Source: Dictyostelium discoideum (Eukaryota). Taken from it: DNA of 64,000 bases. Of this stretch, positions 5,601-50,702 are shown one piece after another. The DNA lies in assembly GCA_000004695.1 (NCBI GenBank), contig CM000151.3, positions 1,344,001-1,408,000 of the forward strand. The letters are read 5' to 3'. Numbering within the stretch: position 1 is the stretch's first letter; the number at the start of each line of letters is the position of its first letter. Under the pieces are notes generated by a model. It ran no database searches. It was given only the letters and a program-made list of their open reading frames with translations, and had not been told where the DNA came from. A program made the translations under genes and the position numbers.

Positions 5601-7149
5601 TTTTTTTAATTGTTTCAATTTGTAATTGAATTAATTTTTCAATATTATTTCCTTCTTCTTCTTCTTTTACTTTTTCTTTTTCTTTTTCTTTTTCTTCTTC
5701 TTCTTTTTCAATTATATTATTATTATTATTATTATTATTATTTGTTAATTCTTTTTCTTTTAATTTTTCAATTACATTATTATGAGTTGGTGTTATACCT
5801 TGATAAGCTGAAGATGGTGATAAATTTTTAATTAATTTTAAGAATAAAGATTGAACTGATTGATTTGTAGTTGATTTTACAAAATTTGACATGAAAATTT
5901 GATAAAGTTCTTGAATGATCTCTAAAGAATTTTGTGGACCATAAGTTTCAATTAAATTATTAATATTTAAATTTAAGATACGTTCCCCTGAAACTTGTAA
6001 ACTAATATCATCAGTTTGTAAGAAATTAACGATTAACAATTCTAAAGTCTCTCTATTTGCTGGTAAATAAGATAAAAGACGTAATAGTTTTTGTTTTTTT
6101 CTAAGATCCAATGAATTTGAAACTCTAGAGAATATTTTCACCAAATGTTGTGTAAATATTTCAATATATTGATTTTGATCAGAATTTGAACCACCTTTAA
6201 CTAGGAATTCAATCAACTTCTTTACAGTGGATTCATTAATTAATAAAACAATCTTATCTAAAAATGTTTCACTTAATTCAATATTTTGTGATTTCAATAC
6301 AACAATCGATTGACAATATAATAAAAATATGATATGATGAGTTAAAAAGTGCTCACAACCACAACTTTGCCAATTATTTGATAATGCATATTGTTTCCAA
6401 ACCAAATCTGCACCTTCGATAACTTGTTGATTTGGTAATCTACCTAATAACAATAATAGCTTAACAGCATGGATTGATGTACTTGTACCACCATATGATA
6501 ATAAACTTGTTGTTATCTCTTGAATGATTGTACCATTATCTAATGCCAATATACCTTTTAATGAATCCATAAACAAGTTAATCGTTGAGGAACTACCACC
6601 AACAGTTGGTGAAAGTAATAATGAAGATGATGGTTGTTTCATTAATGATGATCCCATTGCCATTGTTGTTACTGTTATTGTTGACGATGATGATGATGAC
6701 AATGGTGATACACTACCACTGCCAGTAGTAGTATTGGTAGCACCAAAATTTGGACTATTTGATAATGATTGTGCAGAAATATGTGGTACTAAATTCTTAT
6801 TGAAAAATATTGAACTATAATATAAAAGATGATTTATCAATTGAGTGAATAATACATTCTTTGGTTTATACAATGAAAATACTGATACAGCATTACGAAT
6901 TAATTTCAATAATAAAGTTGAAATGATTGCTGCACTTGGACCTGGTTGATGTTTATTATCATGATTCGATAAAAATCTTGATTGTCTTGCAGCTGAAATT
7001 CTAGCTTCTTCTGGTAATTTACAACCTGTTCTTAATAATACTAATAATGGTGGTAACCATCTTAATTCATATGCTTCTAAAATACTTTCACGTAATAATA
7101 ATATACGTTTTCTAATTAATGGATCACTTGGTGTTGTTGTGGTTGTATT

Positions 7150-7181
<32 letters not shown>

Positions 7182-7692
7182 ACGATGATGATGATGGTGA
7201 GGTTGCAGTTGATGATGACGATGACGATGATGATGTTGATTTATTTACAAATTGTGGTGAAACTGATAATAAAGCATCAGCCCATCTTGCAGCAGATAAA
7301 GATGAACTATGAAGTTTATCAATTAAAACATATAATCTTTCAACCTCTTCAATTGAATTAATAATGAAAAATGGTGAATCACCAAGTGATAAATTTGTAA
7401 ATAATTGATGAGAAATTTGTTGAGAGAATTTTTGATGTAATGTACTATTTGGTTGAACGATTGTAACAATTAAAATTAAAATATCAATTGTTTGAGAATA
7501 TTGTAAATTTGATAATAAAAAACTTAAAAATCGTTCTCTAAAATCTGTATCTGGATATTTATCATTTGGATCATATAAATATCTAACAAAAGAATGACAA
7601 TTTTCAATAATAGTTGGTATTGTATAACTATATGGGTGTGAACTATTATTACCAATTACTGTACTATTATTTAATGACTGACTAGAATTTGA

Positions 7693-7761
<69 letters not shown>

Positions 7762-10700
7762 TGATGAAATATTTGGTGTTGAATTTAATGATTGGCTTTT
7801 ATTTTGATTAGTTTGTTGTTGTTGTTGTGGTGGTGGTTGGAAAAATAATTTTTTAATATCATCAATACTAACTGAAGAATCTGGGAATAATTTTCTATAA
7901 ATAAACATTGAACCTAATAAATCATAACTATAAGATAATACTTGATTTGGTTTTGATAATAGACAATGAGTTTCTTTTAATTCTTCAATGAAATAAGTTG
8001 GGAAATGATTTTCTTTATCGAATAATGATAAGTCTAAACCAAATTTACTTAATTTACTAAGCATCAATAGGATAGCAATTTTCAATTCATGTGAATGTGT
8101 AGTTTGATATTCAATCATTGAGCCAATGATTAATGGTTCAAATAATTTGAAATTTAATTTTCTATCTTCATTGGAAATGATACGATTAATCTCTGAATTA
8201 CTATAACTATAATTAATATTATGACTTGATGGTACTTCATTGATGAAATCATAATGTTGTTTAAGATTTGGTGTACCAAAGGTTAACAATGATGAAAACA
8301 CTGATCTAGAATTTAAAAACATTTCATCATGTGAATTACTACTACTTGAATGTGATTCAATTGATCTTGGTTCATATTGTTTCAATGAGGATGAAGATGA
8401 ATTAATACCACCACTGCCACCACCACCACCGCCACCAGTACTAATGAAACCACCACCAATATTCAAATCTCTTGATTTTTGTGATAATGAACTAATTGAT
8501 ACAATTGGTGTTGGTTTCATAGTTACTAAAAATAATTCATTTATACATTTAATTACTGATACAGGTTCTTGTTCGAAATGAGTCGTTAAATAACCAATGA
8601 TCTCTTCTGTATAGGGTAATATAGTTTTACCAGCACATTTTAACATTACTGATAAAGTTTCAAAACATGCTTGTCTAAGTTGAGAAAATCTATCAATACC
8701 AAAAATTGTGATTGAATTAATACGAGCTGTTAAAAGTTTTGAATAAAGTTTGATATAATGTATCGAATGAGTGAAAGAACCTAAATGAGTTGGTGCCTTG
8801 AGTAGTGGTGAATTTACATGAATACCACTTGGATTTGATTTAACCTCTTTCAAAGGTGGTGTAGGTCTAAACTGAATGATATTAGTTGCAATATTGATAA
8901 TACGTACTATATGGCGCAATACATTATGACAATAGGTGCCAAGTACATTCTCAGCACCCCTACTAAGATAACCCAATATCTCAATGATATCAATATGAAC
9001 ATCGAAATCTGTTGCAACCCAAGTCAAACCAACCCTATCCAAAGCCAATGGTAAAATATCGCCAACAAATGATAACATTGGATTTGCTAAAACCGAAGAA
9101 AGTGTACGACACTGTTCTGGTGTATCGGGTGGGAATGAATAGGTTTTACAAATTAAATTTAAAGCACCATAACAACCACGTATCTTATCATCTGGATGTG
9201 GATTTGAAAGTTGATTAACCAATAAACCAATAACATGTGAAAGATTTGCAAATATCTTTCTCTTTCTTAATACAGTATTCTCATAATCTTGAACATCAAA
9301 TGTCTCTCTAACCTTACTAGATATACCCTTCATTGAATGACGTTCCAATGGTGCTGTGAATACAAGTTTTGGTATAACTCTAACCAATGATTTACCTGCA
9401 CTATTTCTAACTCTAAAATCATTATCACTTAATTGTTCAATTAAAAAATCTAAAACTTTTGATTGAATTGGTATTGCAACTGCGCCACCAGTTTCTGAAT
9501 TATTCTTATTATTATTACTATTATTGCTATTATTATTATTTTCATTAATTTTTATTGATGAAGTTGAAATTGATAAATTTGGACCATTTATAACGACATT
9601 CATTACATTTGATTTTTGTTGAATATTTTGTTCAAGATATTCAATTACAATATAGTCAATCATTGATAAAGTTTCTAGAATTTCCAATTTAACTAACCAA
9701 TAAGTTGAACTACTAACACAAAGTAAATGACGTAATGTTACCAATGCCCAATCAGAGAATTTACTTTGTGATAGAATTGGTAAACATTCACTAATACCTG
9801 TACAAGCTAATTTCGCAGTTATCGAACTTGAATCCATTAATGCACGTAATAAAAATATTAATAAAGTTGGAATTGATAGATTATCTTCTAGCAATGCTAT
9901 ATTGGTTGGATAGATTTGATTACTGGTTATATGATCGGTTTCAAGATAACCTCTAATTAAACAACCAATCATCAATGCTGTACCTCCTCTAAGTAATGGA
10001 TCACTATCATTTAAATAATATAAAAACTCTTCTTTAGGTTCTAAACTAAATGTATGATTTGATACACCTGTTGTACTATTAATTCCACTCATTGTTGATG
10101 ATGTTAAATTATGTTGTTGTTGTTGTTGTTGCTGTTGTTGTTGTTGTTGTTGTTGTTGCTGTTGTTGTTGAGTAATTGGTGTAAACAATTTAAAATTTAA
10201 ATCAGAAGGTGAAATATTTAATAAATAATCTCTACAAATATGATCTTCTGCTGATGTTACTGTATTTGAATCAATAGTTGAAGGTTGATGTTTAAAAAAT
10301 TCATCATTAAATAATTTTGGAAAGAATTTTACAGATTGTGCTAAACAATTTAAAACTACAGCTTTTAAACTAACTCTAATCGATGATTGTTGATTAAAAC
10401 ATAAATGTCTAAGTTGAGCAATCACTTCTCTAACCAATGGTTTTGGCCAACTATATTCATAAGGTCCAAATGTTACCAATAATTGTTGTAATAACTCTAA
10501 ACTTAATCCAACAATATTATGATCATATGGTTCACCATCAATTGGTACTTGAATATATTTTAATATAAAATGTACGAAAAATTGAATCTTTAATGAAAAT
10601 CCATCTAAAATTTTAATATCATTTGCTTTTTTTTTTTAAAAAAAAAAAAATAATTAGTATATTATGTAAAAAATAAATTAATAAATTAATAAATAAATTA

Positions 10701-11925
10701 ATACTTACATGATAATTCTTCAGCTAATTTAATTAATTGTAAATAAGAGAATAAAACACCTAATATTTTTGAATTTTGTAAAGTATTTGTATTACTACTT
10801 GCAGGTATACATGATGCTGAAGTAATTGAAGAGATTGGTGGAGAATTTGGAAAAGTGAAATTGTATAGAAATTCAATTGTAAATTCAAACAATGGTCTTG
10901 GATGATATCTACAAATGGATGTTATGGATAGGGAGGCAGCACGACGCACTGCTGCAGATGGTTGTTGAAGATTTCTACTGAATAGATCAATCAATTGATG
11001 AACTTCGTTCTCCTTTAAGTAGGGTATTAAAATTTTGGAGATGTTCTCCATCGAGATTGAAATACTCTCCTGTAATGACTCATCCTCAATGATACTCAAC
11101 AAACTATTGATTGGTGGTACCAATGATAATATATACTTTCTACATTTCGATGGTCTAATAAAACTACAAATCTCTCCAAACTTTATCAATGCAATACGTT
11201 GTGATTTCAATGGAAATGGTTTGGATAATATTTGATTTGCTGTATTAAATATTGAATTTGCATTACCATTACTATTATTCGTATTATTTCCTGGTGTCGT
11301 ATTTCCACTATTATTATTACTACTACTATTACTATTACTATTACTATTACTATTACTATTACTACTAAAATTATTATATAAATTATTTGATGAATTTGAT
11401 GTTGAATGTGATGGTGATTGAGTCGATGGTGATTGTTGGTAATTTGGTGTGGTTGGTACTGATGGTGTCACTGAATTTTGTGATAAATGATCTGTTAAAT
11501 TGGTTGATAATCTCTTTTCATTATTATGTTGATGTGGTTTACCTTTTAAAACTTTAAATAATTCAAATAATATTCTTTCATGATATGAATATACTAAAAT
11601 CTAAAATAAATAATAATAATAATTAGAAATCAATAAAAAACAATGATCAATTATGATGATTGAAATAATAACTTACTTTTATAGTTCTATTTAAACTTTC
11701 TTCAGCAACAGAATAAACATTTAAATCTTTATCACCATGTGCTCTTAAGAGTAATGAGATTGCAATTGATAAAAATCTTGGAAAATCTGCTGTATTTCTA
11801 AGTGATGGTGCACATATTTGCTCTGAAATCGTTCTACATGCTTCAATCTTTTCTTTCCTTAAATTTTGATCCTCTGTATCTATTGGTGATGCTGATAATA
11901 TATCTAATCCACGAATAAGATCCAT
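2647..11925 (-). CDS. htt: Huntingtin orthologue. Exon 1 is 11677..11925, exon 2 is 10709..11600, and exon 3 is 2647..10625. The two introns are 76 and 83 nt. The product is about 3039 aa.
   Basis: Direct alignment to human HTT that I could read off. EKIEACRTISEQICAPSLRNTADFPRFLSIAISLLLRAHGDKDLNVYSVAEESLNRTIK matches human [72 protein letters not shown]...STYWLVKLEILETL matches VTCKLACTAVRNCV...SSYWLVRTELLETL. C-terminal LLALGLMVTCIYTGDE matches MAALGLMLTCMYTGKE. Splice phases were checked (exon 1 ends in phase 0, exon 2 in phase 1, and exon 3 restores the frame). There is an internal polyQ of about 21 residues, plus polyN and polyS tracts. The start ATG at 11925 sits in an A-rich context. 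Confidence 0.9.
10113..10170 (-). repeat. A (CAA/CAG)n run, read as (ttg)n on the plus strand, encoding the huntingtin polyQ tract of about 21 Q.
   Basis: The nucleotide run was read directly and it coincides with [28 protein letters not shown] in the htt translation. Confidence 0.9.
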
Positions 11926-12602
11926 CTTTTTTTTTTATAAAAAAAAATCTATCTATCTATATTTTGTGTATTATATGTTTATATTATAGGTGTATTATTG
12001 TGTGCTTTATATACGAATATAATTATTTGGTATTTATATAATTATTATTATTATTATCTACTATTATTTTTGCTGTGGTGTGTGAGAGTGTGTGTTGTGG
12101 AATAAAATAAAATGGGTGGTGGAAAATTGAGGATGAAAGGGTGGTATTTAAATATATTTAAAAAAAAAAAAACAATAAATAAATAAATAAATAAAAAATT
12201 TAAATTTTAGTATGTCTATAGACAAAATATCTATATAATACTATTGTTTAACCAAACAAATAATATACGTGTGATAGTTTGGGAAAGACAAAAAAAAAAA
12301 AAAATTTTTAAAAAAAAAATTAAAAAAAAAAAGGGAAAAAAAAGAAATTTTTTTGCCCCAAGAGTATTTCAATTTTTTTAATTAAAAAAAAAAAAATTAA
12401 AAAAATTAAAAAAAAAAAAAATAATTAAAAAAAAAATTAAAAAAAAAAAAAAATATTTATAAAAAAAAAAAAAAAAAAAAAAAGTTAGCACCTTTATTGC
12501 AATTTATTTAATAACTGTAGTAATAAACATATTAAAAATTACTATTATAAAATAATTTAATAATAATATTATAATAATAATAATAATAAAATAATAATAA
12601 TA
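11926..12602. promoter_or_regulatory. Divergent (head-to-head) intergenic region shared by htt (minus) and the carrier gene (plus). It contains a G/T-rich island at about 12040-12135.
   Basis: 677 bp lie between two divergent ATGs. The segment tgctgtggtgtgtgagagtgtgtgttgtgg...gggtggtgg...agggtggt stands out against a background above 90% AT. Long A-runs lie at 12290-12480. Confidence 0.4.
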
Positions 12603-40300: not shown

Positions 40301-43300
40301 TGTTCAAATAAATATAAAGCAGATTCAGTTTGATATGATACCTTACTTAATAAATTAAATGGACCACTTACCTTTGCCACAGAAGGCATAAAACATTGTT
40401 CATTATCAATTGAATATAGTTTATATTTATATTTATTTATTGAATTGGTAGTATCTTCACTATGATTCGAATCATCAATAACTTGAGAGATAATAAAATT
40501 ACCTAAATTACCATCTGCATTATTTACCAACATACTTGTTACTAATTGTTTTGATATATTTGATTGATCTAATTTATTTAATAGTTCTTGACTTTCTTTA
40601 TCACTAAAAGAATCTGGGTTATCTATAACATCAGCTAAAGTTATACCTTCCACTTGTTGAATTAATAAAACTGGTGTTCCACCATTTATCGAAGCCAATT
40701 CGCAATAGGGTGAACAAAAACCAAATAATGCTTCAGATAATCTAATTACGGAAAGTTCAGTTCCTGGGAATTGTGGCTCAAATTTGAAATAGATACCATT
40801 ACCAAATACATCATTAATAAAGGTTACAGATCTTCCACCATGTTTATTTCTTCTAATTGGTTGATTAGTTTCACTATCGAATAAAATATTCCAAAATTCT
40901 TTTGAAACTATTCTTTTCTCACCAATTACTGGTGAAATTAATCTCTTTTTAAAATCTTCATCATCATTATCATCCAATCCAACAATTGGTAATAATTTGT
41001 TCAAAGTTATTGCCCAAGATATTTTTGGATTTTGTTGAAATAATAATTTTAAATAAGGTCTAAAATCATATCTTTCATCGTCGGTCAATTGTTGACAATA
41101 ATAATTTGAAATTAAAACTTGATCTGAATTTTTACCCGCACCTAAATCAATTAACAATTTAAAAAGTTCAAATTGTTTATTTAATACCACTAAATCTAAA
41201 ATGGTTTTACCATCTTCAACTAAATTAATATCAAATCCAAATGATTTAATTAATAATAAAATATATTTTGAAACTTGATCAGTTTTCTTCTTTTCTTCAC
41301 TATTACTATTACTAATACAATCAAAATCAATTAAAAGTGAATGTAAAATTGATTTTTCATTTGTAGAGATAATTTCTTGATTAGAATAATTAATAAACTT
41401 AATAAATTTATTAATTAATTCTTCACTTGCAAAACCTCTAAATAATGAAATTAAAACTAATTTCTTTGAATCAAAAAATGATTTATGAATTTTATAGAAT
41501 GGTGTATTATCTGTACTACTTTTAATAAAGTTAGGGTTGACTTCAAATAATGGAGAGCTCATTTCATTTTTAAAATAATTAAATACCATTTCTAACCATT
41601 GAATTAAATGAAGATTATTTGATTGAAAATCTTTAAATTCTGCTTTTGCAATGATATATCTAATGATTTTATCAAATGAAACATCTGATTTATCAAGTGG
41701 ATTCGATTGTTCTTTAAGGTATTGATTAATTTGATCTTTTAATAACTTTTTTTCAGCTTCAGTACCATGTCTAAATAATAATTGATTTAAATTTAAATTA
41801 CCATGAAAAATATCTCTTGCTTGATCTTTAACATTTGTATGACCGAAATGTTTTGAAAAGAAATTATAATAATAATAAGCAAATGGATGAACTTGTTTAA
41901 ATAAATCTTGATGAGTAATCTCTTCAGATATTGAAAGTTGTTGAATTAAAATTTTAAATCTGTCAATCATATTACTAATGAAACGAATTGAAATAGTCCA
42001 TGGAATTTCCATATCTTCTCTAAAATTCGCTATTCTTGATTCAGCTTCTAAAGTTTTTGAAAATAAAGTTTCATAAATTTCATTATTCTCTTTTAAACTA
42101 TTAATCCAATTTAAAATGAAAACAAATGGATTATGTTTAATAAATTGGTTTCTAATTATAGAATTTACACTTTTTAACATTAATGGCTCAATCGTGAATA
42201 AAATATTCTTAACACCAATTTGCAAATCATTATTTTTGATTTCAATTTCATCAGATTGTAAACAATTATCATTATCAATACCAATTATTCTTTTTGTACC
42301 TTTTTCAATTATGTAATTATCATCCTTTGCATCTGTTGACATTATTAAAAAGTTTGACAGAACATGAGCACTAAAACTTTCTTCATCCAATGGTAGTGAA
42401 CCAATCTTTTTATTAAAATTTTCAATAACATCAGTAAAAGAATCACCATCAACCTTTAAAGAAGATTGAATGAATAATGATTGATTTCTCTCTTTTAAAC
42501 ATTTTTTAATGGTTTCTTTTAAAGTTGGATTATTTTCAAATACAGCTCCAATGGAATTACTTAAATTATTCTCTTGCACCTGTTTTGAAAATTCTTTTTT
42601 CTCATTACTAGATTCGATTGGTAAGAAAGGTAATCTTGATAAATATAGTAATTTCGTTGGTGTAACCAATGAGTAGTCTAAATCTGGATAAAGTTGTTTA
42701 TAGAATTGGAATATTGAATGTTCTTTAGCTGGTCTCAGTAAAGTATTTCCGTTGTCAACTTTGAAATACATTTCATCATATCTTGAGACATAACTCGTTC
42801 CAAATTCATTATCTTTCACATAAGATAACGTATCAGGATCATACGATGAAATTTGGTATGCCGATTTCAATGAATTCAAATTTCTATATCTTAAATTACC
42901 ATCACTTTCATAACTATCAATTAATACTAATGGATTTTCTTCATATAAATTTGAATCTTTTTTTTTAGCTAGTTCAACTAAATTTTTTGAATAAATTTCT
43001 AATTGTTCAATGTAACCATTTAATAACATTTTTAAATCTTCTTTAATTCTTAATTGATTTTCATCATCATGATCACCATAATCATCATCATTTTTTTCAT
43101 CCAATTTTAATAAAACTTGTGATACCTTATTAATATTCAAAATTAATGAATTAAATAAAGGATGTTCAATTGATGGTGATTTCGTAAATTCATTATATTT
43201 AATTGCTTTATCCATTACTTTTACAAACTTTTCTGGTGATAAAACTAATCCTTTGACCATGTTTATTAATTTATCATCCTTTAATTTTGATAAATAAATT

Positions 43301-43377
43301 TCAATTTCCTTGTGATAGGCTATTGTTGTTATCTTTTTTAGATTTTCTAATAAAAGATTTTCTTTTTCATTCTTCAT
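37315..43377 (-). CDS. Giant multidomain protein of 2020 aa. It has an N-terminal helical region, a central region with a possible atypical-kinase-like core, leucine-rich repeats, and a C-terminal array of FNIP repeats.
   Basis: The C-terminal 300 residues are tandem copies of about 22 aa of the form IP..V..L.LG..FNQ.L..G.IP..V..L (IPSSVRILKLANGFNQNLTSGLIPETVKNLYLYD..., IPSGVISLTLGNGFNQSITKGIIPSTVGYLHV...). This is the FNIP repeat family, established as frequent in Dictyostelium. The LRR-like block is LDLSECLGIKTL...LKRFKIDNCINLTNVRIEANNLSTISAINCKALKEF...LDISGSNL. The central core around NADGNLGNFII / GTPVLLIQQVEGITLADV is only suggestive of a kinase-like fold. A single ORF; the ATG at 43377 was verified. 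Only 62 bp separate its stop from the PRP6 stop. Confidence 0.8.
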   Translation of the reverse strand: MKNEKENLLLENLKKITTIAYHKEIEIYLSKLKDDKLINMVKGLVLSPEKFVKVMDKAIKYNEFTKSPSIEHPLFNSLILNINKVSQVLLKLDEKNDDDYGDHDDENQLRIKEDLKMLLNGYIEQLEIYSKNLVELAKKKDSNLYEENPLVLIDSYESDGNLRYRNLNSLKSAYQISSYDPDTLSYVKDNEFGTSYVSRYDEMYFKVDNGNTLLRPAKEHSIFQFYKQLYPDLDYSLVTPTKLLYLSRLPFLPIESSNEKKEFSKQVQENNLSNSIGAVFENNPTLKETIKKCLKERNQSLFIQSSLKVDGDSFTDVIENFNKKIGSLPLDEESFSAHVLSNFLIMSTDAKDDNYIIEKGTKRIIGIDNDNCLQSDEIEIKNNDLQIGVKNILFTIEPLMLKSVNSIIRNQFIKHNPFVFILNWINSLKENNEIYETLFSKTLEAESRIANFREDMEIPWTISIRFISNMIDRFKILIQQLSISEEITHQDLFKQVHPFAYYYYNFFSKHFGHTNVKDQARDIFHGNLNLNQLLFRHGTEAEKKLLKDQINQYLKEQSNPLDKSDVSFDKIIRYIIAKAEFKDFQSNNLHLIQWLEMVFNYFKNEMSSPLFEVNPNFIKSSTDNTPFYKIHKSFFDSKKLVLISLFRGFASEELINKFIKFINYSNQEIISTNEKSILHSLLIDFDCISNSNSEEKKKTDQVSKYILLLIKSFGFDINLVEDGKTILDLVVLNKQFELFKLLIDLGAGKNSDQVLISNYYCQQLTDDERYDFRPYLKLLFQQNPKISWAITLNKLLPIVGLDDNDDEDFKKRLISPVIGEKRIVSKEFWNILFDSETNQPIRRNKHGGRSVTFINDVFGNGIYFKFEPQFPGTELSVIRLSEALFGFCSPYCELASINGGTPVLLIQQVEGITLADVIDNPDSFSDKESQELLNKLDQSNISKQLVTSMLVNNADGNLGNFIISQVIDDSNHSEDTTNSINKYKYKLYSIDNEQCFMPSVAKVSGPFNLLSKVSYQTESALYLFEQMKQPIHQDVIDAIKNMDIYKVCRDWVTNLIDQHDASIDHFKSNEKLLLSQRITIIGISFSKGMIKQMFSKLTRLQQIITSQTNEIKDKENNSPDQENNNNNNNNFKKITHFELLEELEPMIANRYRDLLFNSDLSLVGKYRKYFNLKVGEDTGTTKNKSKILLESRDLPDSNEIQNALWSGNFGPRKALEELDDFCKMKFQNIHHFFEEFEKNSSSQFKIEINQFATFLRETNFKDFSETRQKSLFEILKNKEIASISLVNSIVTRNELLTFKLDTLVVLDLSECLGIKTLTYDYAGFIFLKFPSLKRFKIDNCINLTNVRIEANNLSTISAINCKALKEFYVIMGNVTRCIFENSISNLSVLDNIKKFSNLVRLDISGSNLQSSELFLHFNNLEVLLARSIKKLKCLYFNLPVAHTILLEGCDGLVDLLGEARSLKVLKVPPSVNGADPIHDPRNNLLKAQLARIKINLIGTPDNPYFSHFRSNNDYVITSETPNNNNINNNNNSNNNDSPLRGFVSKDVEIWTRGDQNIGNHNLFNISNYIFVIYDLDNPKSIASLTLPLNLIYTNTSIVKSKLERILLVCGASNSSYITISPVNRNLIKDFMEKYNFKDSLFLWSPTSFNHRHQTIQSFKNKIDNYLFPKRNINLESKETTDLKSFYKPDEVRFNNEIFLRCFNDCEIPDFNPQNLLLDSQVDLYYFQIPDQTRRLYLKNIDQDLVKGVIPKTIVSLHIGSTMYQLKPNSIPSSVETLYLEENFSSSLLSGIIPNSVTLLVLNDIKTPILAGSIPSSVRILKLANGFNQNLTSGLIPETVKNLYLYDIKSQLSIGSIPSGVISLTLGNGFNQSITKGIIPSTVGYLHVYNIKEPLLIESIPEQLTCIEFHNSYNYPLTKGIITNGIEKVHIHSITYPLIENETFPPSVTSLHIHQNYNHIIHPNTIPSTIKYLKIENLKQPLIIGSIPKTLTTLEVPNLDYFKQNIINILPLELPKIVFTN

Positions 43378-43608
43378 TTTTTCACTTTAGTAATATGAAA
43401 AAGATTTTTAAAAATATTTTAAAAAAATAAAACAAAATAAAATAAAAAAAAAAAAAAAAAAAAAAAAATCAAAACCGGCGAGGAATTTTAAGTGTTTTTT
43501 ATATTATTTTAGGTTTTAAAATTAAATTAGGCACTTGTTTTTTTTTTTTCTTTTTTTTTTTTATTAATTGTCACTACTAAAATTTATTTATCTTTAATTA
43601 ATTAATTA

Positions 43609-43647
<39 letters not shown>

Positions 43648-43684
43648 TTTTAAAACCATTAAAAAAAGATTTAAAGTGGAAATA

Positions 43685-43715
<31 letters not shown>

Positions 43716-43818
43716 TTTTGAGTTTTTATAATAAAATCTTAAAAAAAATTTTTTCAAAAAAAAAAAAATCTTTTTTTCCTTTTTTTTTTTTTTTTAAAAA
43801 ATATTTTAAAATGAACTT

Positions 43819-44550
43819 CCTATTTAATTACTATAAATAGAAAAAAAAAAATTAATTTAAAAAATGGATGTAATCATCCTTTCTGTTTACATTTTTTTAT
43901 TATTTTTTTTTTTATTTTTTTTTTTTTATTTTTTTTTAATACCAAATCTTGGTTATTTAACCTTATCTATTTTTAGTTTTAAAATTATTTATAGTTTTTT
44001 TTAAAATATATGTCAAAAAAAATAAATAAATAAAATAAACTATCAATTTTAATATAAAAAAACATTTACAATCAAATTTTTTTTTTTTTCCTTGTACTCA
44101 ATTTTGGCCTCATGTTGGAAAAAAAAAAGCAACACAAACTAGTGATACTTGTCCAATGGAGGAGTAAAAATAATATGACGACTAACCAATTTTCTTTTTT
44201 TCCTATTTAATTACTATAAATGGAAAAAAAGTAATTTTTTAATGATTAAAAAAATGGATATAATAATCATTTCTGTTAACATTATTTTTTTATTTTTTTA
44301 TTTTTTATTTTTCTTTAATACCAAATCTTGGTTTTTAACCTTATCTATTTTTAGTTTTAAAATTAATTATAGTTTTTTGGTAAAATATTTGACAAAAAAA
44401 AAAAATAATAAAATAAACTAATAATTTTAATTAACAAAAACATTTATCATTGAAATTTTTTTTTTCCTTATATACTCCATTTTGGCGTCAGGTTAGAAAA
44501 AAAAAAAAAAAGAAACACAATCTTATGATATTTATCTCAAAAAAACAAGA
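43819..44550. repeat. Tandem duplication of a roughly 383-bp non-coding unit. Copy 1 is 43819..44201. Copy 2 is 44202..about 44550, with about 85-90% identity in alignable parts.
   Basis: Shared blocks are cctatttaattactataaat[a/g]gaaaaaaa, aatggat[g/a]taat[c/a]atc[c/a]tttctgtt[t/a]acat, taataccaaatcttggtt[a]tttaaccttatctatttttagttttaaaatta, aaataaactat/aataattttaat, and ccattttggc[c/g]tca[t/g]gtt[g/a]gaaaaaaaaa. The junction carries gtaaaaataatatgacgactaaccaattttcttttttt, which recurs in intron 2 of the downstream LURP-like gene. Confidence 0.65.
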
Positions 44551-44912
44551 AAAAAAACCAGGTGTTACATTTTTGTGAAAGTCTTAATATAAAAAAAAAA
44601 AAATTAATAAAAAATAAAAATAAAAAAAAATAAAAAAATAAAAAAAAAAAAAAAAAAAAAATGAAAAAAAAAATAAAAAAAATTAAAAATAGAAATTTTT
44701 TTTTTTTAATATAAAAAAACAAAAGAAAAAAAAAAAAAAAACAAACTTATAGTAAAAAACTTATATAAATCTAAATAAAAATAAAAATGACAAAATTATA
44801 TATAAAACAAAAAGTATTCTCTTTTGGTGAGAAATATAATGTATATGATGAATTTAAAAATAAAAAGTAAAAATATTTTCTATACCCCTATTATTATTTT
44901 TAAATAATGATA

Positions 44913-44946
<34 letters not shown>

Positions 44947-45002
44947 CATTTTAAAGATTTTATTGTGAAGGTTCTGTTTTCAGTTGGGGTAGTAAAATAA
45001 AA

Positions 45003-45458
45003 ATGTTTAGCCAAGATACAAATCAATTAATTTTTGTAATTAGACAAAAAGTTAAATTTTCATTTTATAAAAAATATTTTATCTATGATGGTAATGATAA
45101 CCTTTTGGCAACAGTTAAACAAAAATCATTGTTTAAACCAAAATTAGAAATCGTTTTAAATGAAAATGAGCAATACACATGTAAAGGTGATTTTTTTAGT
45201 TATAATTTTCAAATCTTAGATGATGGTCTTCCAATTGGAAGGTATGTTTTTTATTTATGAAATTTTCATCTAATTACAACTTATAAAATAACTAACTTTT
45301 ATTTTATTTATTTATTTATTTATTTCAGTGTTACAAAGAGAGTATTATCATGGGGTGATACATATATGTTGGATATATCAGAGAATTTCGAACCATCCTT
45401 CTTTGTTGCAATTGTTATTACAATTGACGATTGTGTTCATAGAGAAAACAATGGATAA
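45003..45458 (+). CDS. LURP-one-related (DUF567, tubby C-terminal-like) protein, short paralogue. Exon 1 is 45003..45241 and exon 2 is 45329..45458, giving 122 aa. It may lack N-terminal exon(s).
   Basis: The product is ...YTCKGDFFSYNFQILDDGLPIGS|VTKRVLSWGDTYMLDISENFEPSFFVAIVITIDDCVHRENNG*. It matches the C-terminal half of Arabidopsis LURP1 (FEVRGSW...KDNFSVTVYPNVDYAFIASLVVILDDVNRED). The intron is GTATGT..TATTTCAG with phase 2, verified. The length is only about half a full LOR domain. Confidence 0.55.
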
Positions 45459-45997
45459 TAGTTTATATTAATTTTTTGACCCCTTAAAAAGTTTATATGA
45501 ATATAAAAACAAAATTATTATTATTAAAATAAATTTAAAATAATCTTTTAAATTTATAAACAATTGCATTCATTATTTTTCATTTAAAAAAATTAATTAA
45601 TTTAGAATTCCAATTGTCAGGAAAGAAAAAAGGAAAAAAAAAAAAAAAAAAAAAAATTAATATAAACATCAACTATAGTTCGGAATTGTTTAAAAAAAAA
45701 ATAAAATTAAAATTAATTATAGTTTAGAATTGTTTAAAAAAAAATTAAAATTAAAAAAAAAAAAATTAAAAAAAAAAAAAAAAATTTAAAAATAAAACAT
45801 TCGTAGATTTGTACATGTTTCCATATTTAAACATTAATTTCCAAAAGGGGATGCAAAATTTGGTGTATTGATGAAATGAATATAAAAGAAAAAAAAAAAT
45901 TAAAAAAAAAAAAAATTAAAATAAAAAAATAAAAAAATAAAAATAAATAAAATAATATATTTGTAAATATTAAATTAATTAAATATATATTAAAAAA

Positions 45998-46478
45998 ATG
46001 ATGAAAAAATATATTGTTAGTTATGGTAATAATTATGGATATTATAATTCAAATAAACAAATTAATATTTTAGATGATACAAGAAAGGAAGTTCTTTATG
46101 AATGTTATTTAAATCCAAAGAATAGGAAATGTGATTTTTATAAATATAATTCAAATAATCCAAATAATAATAAATATGATAAAAATAATGAAAATTTTAA
46201 AATTGAAGATTGTTACTCAATAAAAGAACCAGAATTAAAAGATGATGAATTATTTAAAATTGAAAAAGAGAGTTTCCTATCCCTTCATTCAAAACATTTA
46301 ATCTTAAATAAAGAAAATCAATTAATATCAACAATGGAAAGGAAAACAAGATTATTTTCTCATTCAAATTATAATTTAACAATGATAAATGGTCAACAAT
46401 ATTTTATAATTCCACCAAAATCAAAAGTTAATTTTGGTGGTTTTGAAATTTATGATGGTGATAAATTAATTGGAAAGT

Positions 46479-46561
<83 letters not shown>

Positions 46562-47041
46562 CCAATAAAATCGAATTCTTCTAATAATAAAATTAATTTA
46601 TTTTTCATTTCAATAGTGCTTGGTTTGGAGTAAATTATGAATTATTTTTAAATGAACAATATGATGAGCCATTCTTTTTATTAGTTTCAATTATTGCCAA
46701 TAACTTCTTTTCTTCTATTACTCCAAGGTAGATATATCACTAATATCACTAATGAAAAAAATGTAAAAATAATATGATGACTAACCAATTTTCTTTTTTT
46801 ATTTTACTTTAAAAGTAGAAGAAAAATGAGATCATTTAATAAAAATCCCAATTTCATTAGCAGTGGAAGTAACGGAATGAATTGGGGTGGTTCTTTGAAC
46901 ACTTGTGACTCTGGAGGATTCAATAGTTTTGGTTGCGACAGTGGCGGTGGTGGCTTTGGTTGCGACAGTGGTGGTGGTGGTTTTGGTTGCGACAGTGGTG
47001 GTGGTGGTTTTGGTGGCTGTGATAGTGGAAGTTCATTTTAA
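45998..47041 (+). CDS. LURP-one-related (tubby-like) protein with a Gly/Cys/Asp/Ser-rich repeat tail. Exon 1 is 45998..46476, exon 2 is 46617..46727, and exon 3 is 46816..47041, giving about 271 aa.
   Basis: Exon 1 ends ...GGFEIYDGDKLIG. Exon 2 reads N|AWFGVNYELFLNEQYDEPFFLLVSIIANNFFSSITP, paralogous to the gene above and to the LURP1 C-terminus. Exon 3 reads SRRKMRSFNKNPNFISSG...GCDSGGGGFGCDSGGGGFGCDSGGGGFGGCDSGSSF*. Donors are GTAAGT and GTAGAT; acceptors are CAATAG and TTAAAAG. Phases were verified (479+111+226=816 nt). Intron 1 contains a 77-nt pure poly(A) run. Confidence 0.65.
46483..46559 (+). repeat. Uninterrupted poly(A) homopolymer of 77 nt inside intron 1 of the LURP-like gene.
   Basis: Counted directly. 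A runs from 46483 to 46559 immediately after the GTAAGT donor. Confidence 0.95.
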
Positions 47042-47159
47042 TATTTTTTAAAAAAATAATTTTTAATTAAATAATTTTAAAATAATTTTATTTGAAATAA
47101 ATGTTCTATCATTCAAATTAAAATAAAATAATTAAGTAAATTTTTTCAACCTATTTAAA

Positions 47160-47560
47160 TTGGTGCATACATGTATGTATGCATGTATGTTGAGAATGAG
47201 TGGTTGTTACTTGGGGGTTAAGTGGTTTTGCAAATTATCTTAAAATATTTATTTTAACACATAAAAAAATAATAACAATTTTTTTTTTTTATTATTTTTA
47301 TGTGTTAAAATAATTATATAATATCTTCTTTTTTTAATTTTTATATTACAATATGTAGTTTAAAAAAGGGAATAATCTCATTTATTTATATTTTTATAAA
47401 TATGGATCGTTATAAATGATCTTATCAAAAAAAGAAAAAACGATTATTTTATCATATAATTGGGGGTAAATTCGAATTGTGTGGTTGTTATTGTGTTTTT
47501 GTGAGTTTTGTAATTTGTATTATAACAACTGGGGTATATTTATCTGTTAATATCAACATG
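47160..47560. other. Non-coding G/T-rich island with palindromes, lying between the LURP-like gene and the glycoprotein gene. It contains a perfect 19-bp inverted repeat (47248..47266 / 47295..47313, with a 28-nt loop) and direct repeats of the gtggttgtta / ttgggggt(t)aa motifs.
   Basis: The stem ttattttaacacataaaaa pairs with tttttatgtgttaaaataa, verified base by base. The segment gcatacatgtatgtatgcatgtatg is near-palindromic. The segments gagtggttgttacttgggggttaagtggttttg (about 47201) and ttgggggtaaattcgaattgtgtggttgttattgtgtttttgtgagttttg (about 47461) share motifs. There is no ORF. Confidence 0.5.
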
Positions 47561-48020: not shown

Positions 48021-50702
48021 ATGAAATTTTTATTATTTTTATTTTTTATATTTTTAAATGTTAATATTATAAAATCAGATTTTATAAAAACCACAAATTT
48101 AAATTTATTAAAAAAAATAAATAATAGTAACGATAATATTATTTATAATTTTTCAAATGATTTATTGTGGAAACCAAATTTAAAACCAAATGTAACAGAT
48201 AATGTAATAATTGATAGTGGTTTTAATATTGTGATGAATCAATCGAGTAAAATAAAAAGTTTAGAAATTAAACCAAATTCATCATTTTTAATAAAGACAC
48301 AATTAAGAATTCAAGAAAAATTTACAAGTGATAATGGATCAATATTAATATTTGATGCAGATTCAATTGGCGATGGTACAATGATAATTGGTGGTGATGT
48401 AAATTTATTTGGTTCAATGTATATTCAAAGTTATTTTAGTATTTATTCAATGAAAACGTTAAATATATATGGTCAATTGAATTTGGGAGGGTTATGTTAT
48501 ATAAATAGTTTTACAAAATTCTCTGGTTTCCAAAATGGGATATATGGATCGATGTTTATTTTTACAAACAATACAGAGTTTAATAAAAATTTTATGTTAC
48601 TTGATACATCATTAATAGATTTCGTTGGTAGTGATTGTAATTATTTAATGACAAATAATTCACTTTCGACGTTAATTCGTTCAATGTTTAGTATATTAGA
48701 AACATCATTACAATTAAAAAAAAGTAAATTAATATTAAATGAATCAATTCAAAATATTAAAGAATCAAATGTAACCATTGAAATGGATAGTGCAATTAAT
48801 GTACATAAGAATTCTACATTAAAAATTTATAATACAGAATTCATAATAGATGGTTCAACATTAGTTTTTGAATATTTTTCAAATGGTACAATTGAAAATT
48901 CAATTTTTAAACTTTATAATAAATCTTCGATTCTCTTTTATAATGGTAGTTTTGTTGAAGTTTTAGGTGGTCAAATGTTATTATTTGATTCTTATTTAGA
49001 TATTTACAATGGTTCAGAATTAATAATTAATGGAACATTTGAAAATTTTAGAGTTTATAATCAAACTGCAGTTGAAATTTCACATTTAGGAAAATGTAGT
49101 ATCATTGGTAGATTAAACCTATTTGATAAATCCTCTTTTAAATGTAAAAGAGGTAGTGAATTATTAATTAATGGAACATTAGTACATTATCATAATTCAT
49201 TTATAAATTCAACATTAGCATCTGTTATTTTAAATGGTGATTTGATTTTAAAGGATGAATCATTTGTTCAATCTGTCGATTCATACTTTAATATTAATGG
49301 TAATTTAATAATGGAATCAAATACAACTTTAAAAATTAAAAATTCAACATTTATTGTACCAGGTTCAATTTATTTAAATTCATCAATCATTCTCAACTCA
49401 TCATTTTTATATTTAAATGGTAGTTTTATAGCCCATACTGATTCACCTTCAAATTTTACAAAATCAGTTTTAAATATTACAGGTGAAATTTATTTAGATG
49501 GTGTTTTATCATTTAATGATACTTTTATTCAAACAAATTCAAATTTTTCAATTGGTGGTGATATCATTGGTAATAAAATGAAAATTTCAACATTTGGTCA
49601 TTTTAAAATTGAAAAGAATGCTTCATTTCTTTGTGATGGTTGTACATTGGATATTGGTAAACGAGGTGAATTTATTTATGATAGATATTCAGTGATAAAA
49701 TTAAATAATACAAAAATCAATATTAATCCACTTGGTGTAGTTAAAAGTTTTGGAATTATTCATGTAATTCATGGTACATCAATTACAAATGTTGGTAATT
49801 TCGAACATTCCTCACATATTTATCATAATCATATTAATGGTGAATTATCATTATTAAATGAATCAATTATAAGGAATAAAGGTAATTGGAAATGTATTGA
49901 TGTTAATGAAACTACATTTACAAATAAAAGTCAAATTGATTTACCATTTTTTAATGATGGTGGAGTTTTACATATTTCAGGTTCACATACATTTTTTAAA
50001 TTATTCTATCAAGATAATAATGGTAAAATTAGTTTATCCAATAATGGCTCAATTAGTTCAATTAGACCTTTAAATTTAAATAATGGTTATTTAGTTGGAA
50101 ATGGTTCAATCATTGGTTCAGTTAATATGAGTGGAGAAATTGGTCAACAATATACACCAAATCAATTAAATATTAATGGTGATTTACATTTTTCATCAGA
50201 AAATTCAAAAATTATCATTACAATTGATAAAGATCAATCATTTACAACCATAAATGTTAATCAAACTATTAATTTAACAAATTGTAATAATTCTTGTGAA
50301 TTGGTTTTTCTAATTCATCAAGATATGATTAGTAATGGTGAATTTGAATTTTTAAAATATAATTCATTGGTTGGTTCAAACTTTAGTTCAATTAAATTTC
50401 AGACATACAATAATCTTGATGCTATTGAAAATAATAAAAAAACAATTTCAAATTCTTCAATTATAAATGGTTGTCAAGTTTCAATAAAAAGTGGTCATAA
50501 ATCAATGGCATTAATGTTTAATAGTTGCATGGAAAGAAAATCAATTCCAGTTTATACTTATATATTTTCTGCTGTTGGTGTAGTTTGTATTGGTTTACTT
50601 GTAAGTTTAGGAATTCAAAATAGGCATAAAATTAAAACAAAATATTTACATTGGAAAGATAGAACTAGAGAATTAAAATATAATAATAATAATAAAAGAT
50701 AA
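48021..50702 (+). CDS. Secreted / type I membrane glycoprotein of 893 aa. It has an N-terminal signal peptide, a long repetitive beta-rich ectodomain with very many N-x-S/T sequons, and a single C-terminal transmembrane segment.
   Basis: It begins MKFLLFLFFIFLNVNIIKSD, a signal-like start. Degenerate repeats recur throughout, of the form G..I.NG.F.....L.L.NGSF, suggestive of a beta-helix. The C-terminus IPVYTYIFSAVGVVCIGLLVSLGIQNRHKIKTKY is a TM segment followed by a basic stop-transfer. A single ORF; the ATG was verified. Confidence 0.7.
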   Translation: MKFLLFLFFIFLNVNIIKSDFIKTTNLNLLKKINNSNDNIIYNFSNDLLWKPNLKPNVTDNVIIDSGFNIVMNQSSKIKSLEIKPNSSFLIKTQLRIQEKFTSDNGSILIFDADSIGDGTMIIGGDVNLFGSMYIQSYFSIYSMKTLNIYGQLNLGGLCYINSFTKFSGFQNGIYGSMFIFTNNTEFNKNFMLLDTSLIDFVGSDCNYLMTNNSLSTLIRSMFSILETSLQLKKSKLILNESIQNIKESNVTIEMDSAINVHKNSTLKIYNTEFIIDGSTLVFEYFSNGTIENSIFKLYNKSSILFYNGSFVEVLGGQMLLFDSYLDIYNGSELIINGTFENFRVYNQTAVEISHLGKCSIIGRLNLFDKSSFKCKRGSELLINGTLVHYHNSFINSTLASVILNGDLILKDESFVQSVDSYFNINGNLIMESNTTLKIKNSTFIVPGSIYLNSSIILNSSFLYLNGSFIAHTDSPSNFTKSVLNITGEIYLDGVLSFNDTFIQTNSNFSIGGDIIGNKMKISTFGHFKIEKNASFLCDGCTLDIGKRGEFIYDRYSVIKLNNTKININPLGVVKSFGIIHVIHGTSITNVGNFEHSSHIYHNHINGELSLLNESIIRNKGNWKCIDVNETTFTNKSQIDLPFFNDGGVLHISGSHTFFKLFYQDNNGKISLSNNGSISSIRPLNLNNGYLVGNGSIIGSVNMSGEIGQQYTPNQLNINGDLHFSSENSKIIITIDKDQSFTTINVNQTINLTNCNNSCELVFLIHQDMISNGEFEFLKYNSLVGSNFSSIKFQTYNNLDAIENNKKTISNSSIINGCQVSIKSGHKSMALMFNSCMERKSIPVYTYIFSAVGVVCIGLLVSLGIQNRHKIKTKYLHWKDRTRELKYNNNNKR

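Follow-up and report, generated by a model that had tools for sequence, protein, structure and literature searches.

The apparent 383-bp tandem repeat in the spacer upstream of the Dictyostelium discoideum gene DDB_G0272252 is very probably (we put the probability at about 0.9) the remnant of a tandem segmental duplication of approximately 2.6 kb, the upstream copy of which was later mostly deleted. This reading comes from sequence comparison of a 64-kb stretch of chromosome 2 of strain AX4 (hereafter the window, to whose first letter all AX4 positions refer) with syntenic loci from other strains and species. The locus represents an ordinary structural polymorphism produced by the well-understood processes of duplication, decay and unequal recombination, and it involves no new element or mechanism. 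Nothing relevant was found in the literature on these genes, on LURP-one-related (LOR) genes in Dictyostelium, or on the new assemblies.

The repeat in the AX4 spacer

The spacer (43378-44786) is the divergent intergenic region between a gene for a 2020-aa FNIP-repeat protein, which starts at 43377 on the minus strand, and DDB_G0272252 on the plus strand. The DNA of this region is AT-rich, and permissive blastn searches with the dust filter off were dominated by AT-rich low-complexity matches and were uninformative. A repeat search identified direct-repeat blocks spaced 378-383 bp apart, and global alignment of 43819-44156 with 44202-44538 revealed two head-to-tail copies in which 317 of 353 aligned columns are identical (~90%); by blastn, 43819-44153 and 44202-44538 share 80.6% identity with gaps counted. 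The first-pass annotation had described a tandem duplication of about 383 bp, and its two diverged copies are borne out, but its size is not. The repeated unit, here designated U, comprises ~338 bp and not 383, as 44157-44201 has no counterpart after the second copy in the global alignment, and the underlying event would have spanned ~2.6 kb with the upstream copy cut to 383 bp by deletion. No third copy of U was detected by blastn in the 64 kb, which contain exactly two.

The upstream unit U1 (43819-44156, plus strand) is a promoter-region unit of A type, orthologous to the unit U_A of strain ACTFIW, and would be the 5' end left of the upstream (A) copy. The downstream unit U2 (44202-44538, plus strand) is of B type and is contiguous with the functional LOR promoter. 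Between the two copies, and not inside the repeated unit, lie the 7 nt TGGAGGA (44157-44163, plus strand) at the putative deletion junction of the AX4 lineage, followed by a 38-mer (44164-44201, plus strand) identical at 37 of 38 positions to 46763-46800 on the same strand. This second 38-mer is located within intron 2 (46728-46815) of the neighbouring gene DDB_G0272376 and spans the ACTAAC branch site and the T-run, so that the spacer copy corresponds to the 3' part of that intron. Both the near identity and the assignment to the branch point and polypyrimidine end of intron 2 had been proposed in the first-pass annotation, and both were confirmed, the 38-mer being a true homologue that in ACTFIW stands at the same junction together with relics of exon 2 and intron 2. 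A further resemblance noted there, between tccaatggaggag and the exon 2/donor junction ctccaaggtagat, did not hold up, as it amounts to 9 of 13 positions with a gap and its TCCAA is already accounted for by homology between the units (TC-CAA versus TCTCAA).

Past the 38 nt, no similarity to the intron was found in the AX4 window. Nothing corresponding to TGGAGGA is present in U2, in the A copy of ACTFIW or beside the intron source; the heptamer also occurs at 46912 in exon 3 of DDB_G0272376, but with 8 occurrences in 64 kb nothing can be claimed from this. A translated search of the spacer for a LOR-like coding relic, as had been suggested, returned a best score of 21.6 bits (tblastn with both neighbouring proteins, all frames), which falls within the 16.9-24.3 bits obtained in 30 shuffles.

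The spacing of the two 38-mers is 2599 bp, and the upstream one is followed directly by U2; the unit duplicated would therefore be 44202-46800. This downstream (B) copy, complete at 2599 bp on the plus strand, includes U2, the LOR gene, the intergenic region, exons 1 and 2 of DDB_G0272376 and the first 73 nt of its intron 2. The right edge of the upstream 38-mer would represent the original tandem-duplication junction, and the right edge of the source 38-mer would represent the right breakpoint of the ancestral duplication.

The neighbouring genes

DDB_G0272252 (gene 1; 44787-45458, plus strand) is a complete LOR gene with exons at 44787-44866, 44957-45241 and 45329-45458. Its spliced translation of 164 aa equals XP_645171.1 in an exact protein look-up and matches the LOR family profile PF04525 with 55.2 bits (cutoff 24.5, E=9.3e-15), in a match that extends over positions 14-186 of the 187 in the profile. 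The first exon is short, with 27 codons (44787-44866) upstream of the open reading frame that starts at 45003, and it had been missed when a truncated paralogue was placed at 45003 in the first-pass annotation; that feature is exon 2 of the complete three-exon gene.

DDB_G0272376 (gene 2; 45998-47041, plus strand) encodes 271 aa in exons 45998-46476, 46617-46727 and 46816-47041 and equals XP_645172.1; an exact look-up of its exon 1 open reading frame gave no match, but a search with the spliced protein did. D. citrinum and D. dimigraforme have intron 2 at the corresponding position. Intron 1 consists mostly of an unbroken 77-nt poly(A) run (46483-46559). The C-terminal part of the protein is a Gly/Cys-rich repeat, and its GGGGFGCDS units at the C-terminus are encoded by a 27-bp tandem repeat at 46926-47014 (3.3 copies, 95% matches). 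Orthologues of this protein have 276 aa in ACTFIT, 279 aa in ACTFIW and 286 aa in D. cf. discoideum, compared with 271 aa in AX4. The intergenic region between the LOR gene and gene 2 contains a 44-bp tandem repeat at 45648-45756 (2.5 copies, 86% matches) that includes …CTATAGTTCGGAATTGTTT…, and a motif related to it, TTTAGAATTCCAATTGTC, is present in both ACTFIW copies.

The description of both neighbours as LURP-like was well founded for gene 1 and is uncertain for gene 2, where the evidence is weak. A Pfam search with AX4 gene 2 gave no match, and one of five orthologues matched the LOR family at E=0.11. Comparison of gene 2 with LOR by hhalign gave a weak match with a probability of 31.6% (E=5e-4, 104 columns), and the ~20% similarity of gene 2 to gene 1 in BLASTP was not significant. 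The two genes have a common intron position, directly after the residues ...IG, and the predicted AlphaFold structure of gene 2 (pLDDT 33.6) was too poor to use. On these comparisons gene 2, the donor of the 38-mer, would be at best a very remote LOR relative.

Syntenic loci in other strains and species

Syntenic loci were gathered from a protein search with DDB_G0272376, by way of its orthologues in NCBI assemblies, their cluster members and the encoding contigs. These comprise D. discoideum ACTFIT (L001), ACTFIW (L005) and ACTFIR (L006), together with D. cf. discoideum (L004), D. citrinum (L002), D. dimigraforme (L003) and D. firmibasis (L007). The comparison with other strains and species, which the first-pass annotation had recommended, yielded a long copy in ACTFIW, a deletion in AX4 and ACTFIT, a collapse in ACTFIR and four single-copy outgroups.

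The ACTFIT locus is 99.3% identical to the AX4 window and carries both 38-mers. In ACTFIW, the order is FNIP gene, U_A, LOR-A, exon-2 relic, intron-2 relic with the 38-mer, U_B, LOR-B and gene 2, with two LOR genes (LOR-A, 6827-7511; LOR-B, 8688-9393) between the FNIP gene and gene 2. LOR-A has an intact open reading frame of 163 aa with the same splice sites. Self-comparison of this locus aligns 6327-7701 with 8187-9590 at 85% identity, 8085-8126 with 10635-10676 at 97.6%, and 8121-8197 with 10709-10785 at 94.8%; the second of these matches is the end of gene-2 exon 2, located immediately before the second U, and the third belongs to intron 2 and includes the 38-mer at 8144-8181. The junction of the 38-mer with the start of U is common to AX4, ACTFIT and ACTFIW. 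The earlier suggestion that the spacer holds relics of duplicated neighbouring genes is thus upheld by ACTFIW, where LOR-A is intact and both 36 nt from exon 2 of gene 2 and a longer part of intron 2 are retained. No strain showed exon 1 or intron 1 of the duplicated gene 2, and the 277 bp of AT-rich ACTFIW sequence where gene-2 exon 1 would be expected (7808-8084) had no match in the window or in the other loci. By eye, LOR-A of this assembly (GCA_054859355.1) is ~88% identical to LOR-B.

LOR-A is a gene presence/absence polymorphism, as it is found in ACTFIW and not in AX4, ACTFIT or ACTFIR. It occurs in one assembly and forms a single-member cluster in the protein collection; the long upstream copy depends on the ACTFIW assembly being correct, and an assembly error there is conceivable.

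The ACTFIR locus contains one U, one LOR gene and the 38-mer in the intron only. It is of A type from position 9232 to about 9700 (the first ~25 informative sites) and of B type from about 9776 through the LOR gene. Judged from these sites, the ACTFIR single copy is an A/B chimera, with an A-type promoter and a B-type LOR gene, that would reflect recombinant collapse and not a never-duplicated allele. The chimera spans 9232-10720, and the annotation of this locus joins LOR and gene 2 in one 407-aa model (P0007), which is probably an annotation artefact. ACTFIW/ACTFIR diverge from AX4 by ~6.5% over the 3 kb at the 5' end of the FNIP-repeat gene (40378-43377) and by ~2.5% over the 893-aa gene at 48021-50702. 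Both values are large for strains that carry one species name, and ACTFIW and ACTFIR may belong to a lineage of their own.

D. cf. discoideum, D. citrinum, D. dimigraforme and D. firmibasis have one LOR gene each and lack the spacer 38-mer. A homologue of the intronic 38-mer is present in the single-copy D. cf. discoideum (12077-12116) and is more diverged in D. citrinum. In D. firmibasis (L007 4979-9482), the syntenic LOR gene is present, and a gene-2 orthologue was not detected between it and the 899-aa gene.

Orthology of the copies and timing of the probable duplication

The two copies can be followed across strains. Diagnostic sites that pair AX4 U1 with ACTFIW U_A and U2 with U_B number 11, compared with one concerted and one cross site. 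For the LOR genes, p-distances with introns included are 8.3-9.2% between LOR-A and LOR-B, 4.2% between AX4 and ACTFIW LOR-B, 12-13.5% between D. cf. discoideum and all of these, and 16-19% for D. citrinum and D. dimigraforme. These distances place the duplication after the split from D. cf. discoideum and before the divergence of the sampled D. discoideum lineages. The intron copy of the 38-mer would be the ancestral one, because the position of intron 2 is conserved and the D. cf. discoideum homologue is located there. The locus combines copies of the same orientation with abutting ends, a longer collinear version in ACTFIW, single-copy outgroups and orthology of the copies across strains, as befits a relic of duplication.

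The two AX4 38-mers differ at 1 of 38 positions while U1 and U2 differ by ~10%, and the Poisson probability of at most one mismatch with ~3.8 expected is roughly 0.1. At position 14 of the 38-mer (44177 and 46776), both AX4 copies have G in place of the C found in ACTFIW A and B, ACTFIR and D. cf. discoideum. Ectopic gene conversion that involved the relic and the intron could account for these patterns, as could a parallel change or sampling noise.

Proposed history

The shared junctions and the divergences point to an ancestor of the sampled D. discoideum in which the segment now at 44202-46800 would have been duplicated head-to-tail. This segment would have run from unit U through the LOR gene DDB_G0272252 and the intergenic region into DDB_G0272376, ending at the T-run of its intron 2, and the junction would have joined the T-run to CCTATTTAATT with ~2 nt (TT) of microhomology. 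The duplication would have added LOR-A as a second LOR gene, together with a copy of gene 2 truncated at its 3' end. As the ACTFIW locus indicates, the truncated gene-2 copy would subsequently have decayed through deletions, with LOR-A remaining intact. For the AX4/ACTFIT lineage, comparison of the loci argues for a single deletion that began midway through the LOR-A promoter element and stopped 38 nt short of the junction. Falling between 44156 and 44164, this deletion would have removed ~2.2 kb as measured on the present B copy, or ~1.5 kb as measured on the ACTFIW A copy, and would have left U1, 7 nt and the 38-mer, a total of 383 bp resembling a short tandem repeat. The single chimeric copy of ACTFIR would be the product of unequal recombination between A and B.

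The probable promoter element and the fate of the relic

A conserved non-coding element, …ACACAATCTTATGATAT…CCAGGTGTTACATTTTTGTGAAAGTC (44512-44583, plus strand), is located ~205-275 bp upstream of the LOR start codon. This element of ~70 nt is conserved in AX4, ACTFIW, D. cf. discoideum, D. citrinum and D. dimigraforme, in a surrounding AT-rich spacer that is otherwise unalignable, and lies at ~8603-8675 in L002, ~8408-8470 in L003 and ~9730-9800 in L004. It probably serves DDB_G0272252 as core promoter or as a site for factor binding. U1 keeps the first half only (44130-44153), as the AX4 deletion starts inside the element, and the CCAGGTGTTACATTTTTGTG half is missing from U1. Because this half and the gene are both gone, the AX4 relic would be inert debris, most likely without a function of its own. 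We consider it improbable that the presence or absence of LOR-A and the half-promoter relic together constitute a functional polymorphism kept in D. discoideum populations; if this were true, the polymorphism could alter the dosage or regulation of the LOR genes or of the divergent FNIP-repeat gene, and the G14 common to the two AX4 38-mers would in that case point to ectopic gene conversion still in progress between the relic and the live intron.

Alternative explanations

From AX4 alone, the arrangement could be read as a local tandem duplication of ~340 bp, the junction of which acquired a 38-nt templated filler from intron 2, 2.6 kb away, by MMBIR/FoSTeS or polymerase-theta-type end joining, since the 38-mer separates the copies, does not recur at the end of the second one and sits beside the 7 nt TGGAGGA. 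In ACTFIW, however, contiguous sequence from exon 2 and intron 2 and a whole LOR gene lie upstream of the same junction, collinear with the downstream copy, U1 is orthologous to U_A, and the 2599-bp periodicity would have to be a coincidence. As the supposedly inserted stretch is contiguous with a longer copy of its source in L005, this explanation was rejected and we regard it as very unlikely.

The occurrence of LOR-A in one assembly only would also fit two independent events, namely a small duplication in AX4 and a separate large one in ACTFIW, in which case LOR-A would be young and specific to its strain, and the AX4 relic would never have been associated with a gene. This scenario carries little credibility, as the AX4 and ACTFIW junctions are identical, the A/B diagnostic sites are common across strains, and the 8.3% distance between LOR-A and LOR-B is twice the 4.2% between the AX4 and ACTFIW orthologues; moreover, the A-type promoter in the ACTFIR chimera implies that the A copy predates ACTFIR as well.

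There is similarly slender reason to regard the repeat as functional in its own right, whether as a gene for a small RNA, as a mobile element or as a regulatory module whose duplicate is maintained by selection. U does contain a TATA-like CTATAAATAG and the first half of the cross-species promoter element, but a covariance search with Rfam 15 over 43300-47200 on both strands gave no match at E up to 5, and only the proximal element of U can be aligned with D. citrinum and D. dimigraforme. The window contains no additional copy of U, and a mobile element or dispersed repeat was not indicated, with two copies each of U and of the 38-mer in 64 kb and no relevant open reading frame. The existence of three strain states (kept, deleted and collapsed) likewise speaks against constraint. 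Motifs of class I RNAs and the DUSE were not seen on reading the sequence by eye. A snoRNA was considered for the intron copy, which has a C-box-like ATGATGA, and was rejected, as there is no D box and no Rfam match.

Finally, the coincidence that the first-pass annotation had itself raised, a generic Dictyostelium branch site (ACTAAC) and T-run of the kind found in AT-rich introns and spacers, has next to no probability despite the AT-rich sequence and its common splice-signal motifs, given 37/38 identity, two matches only in the 64-kb window at up to 3 mismatches, no match in any of 100 dinucleotide shuffles, and occurrence at only the two orthologous places in ~140 kb of related loci.

Significance and comparison with known systems

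If the ancestral duplication of ~2.6 kb is correct, the locus presents a compact life cycle of a tandem gene duplication, from birth with a truncated gene to three fates in sister lineages, and the reference strain AX4 would have lost a LOR paralogue that another D. discoideum lineage kept. It also suggests caution in the interpretation of AT-rich spacers, where a short tandem repeat with a foreign insert may be all that deletion has left of a larger duplication.

With respect to the LOR family (PF04525), gene 1 and the ACTFIW LOR-A are clear members, and the spacer relic is without LOR coding sequence. The AX4 arrangement resembles the templated insertions attributed to MMBIR/FoSTeS or theta-mediated end joining in having a short stretch from kilobases away at a repeat junction, beside a few bases without a source. 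It differs from these in that the AX4 38-mer would be the residue of a contiguous long copy, as found in ACTFIW; TGGAGGA alone could be true filler. The closest correspondence is with tandem gene duplication followed by pseudogenisation or deletion, in which copies lie head-to-tail and a breakpoint inside a gene leaves one copy truncated at birth. The ~2 nt of junction microhomology and the divergence of the copies between that of the species split and that of the strain splits are likewise those of tandem duplication with unequal recombination, and retention, partial deletion and recombinational collapse in different lineages are found in such systems. Nothing essential distinguishes this locus from the usual tandem duplication, except that the deletion in AX4 was so large that its remnant mimics a 383-bp repeat with an orphan intron fragment.
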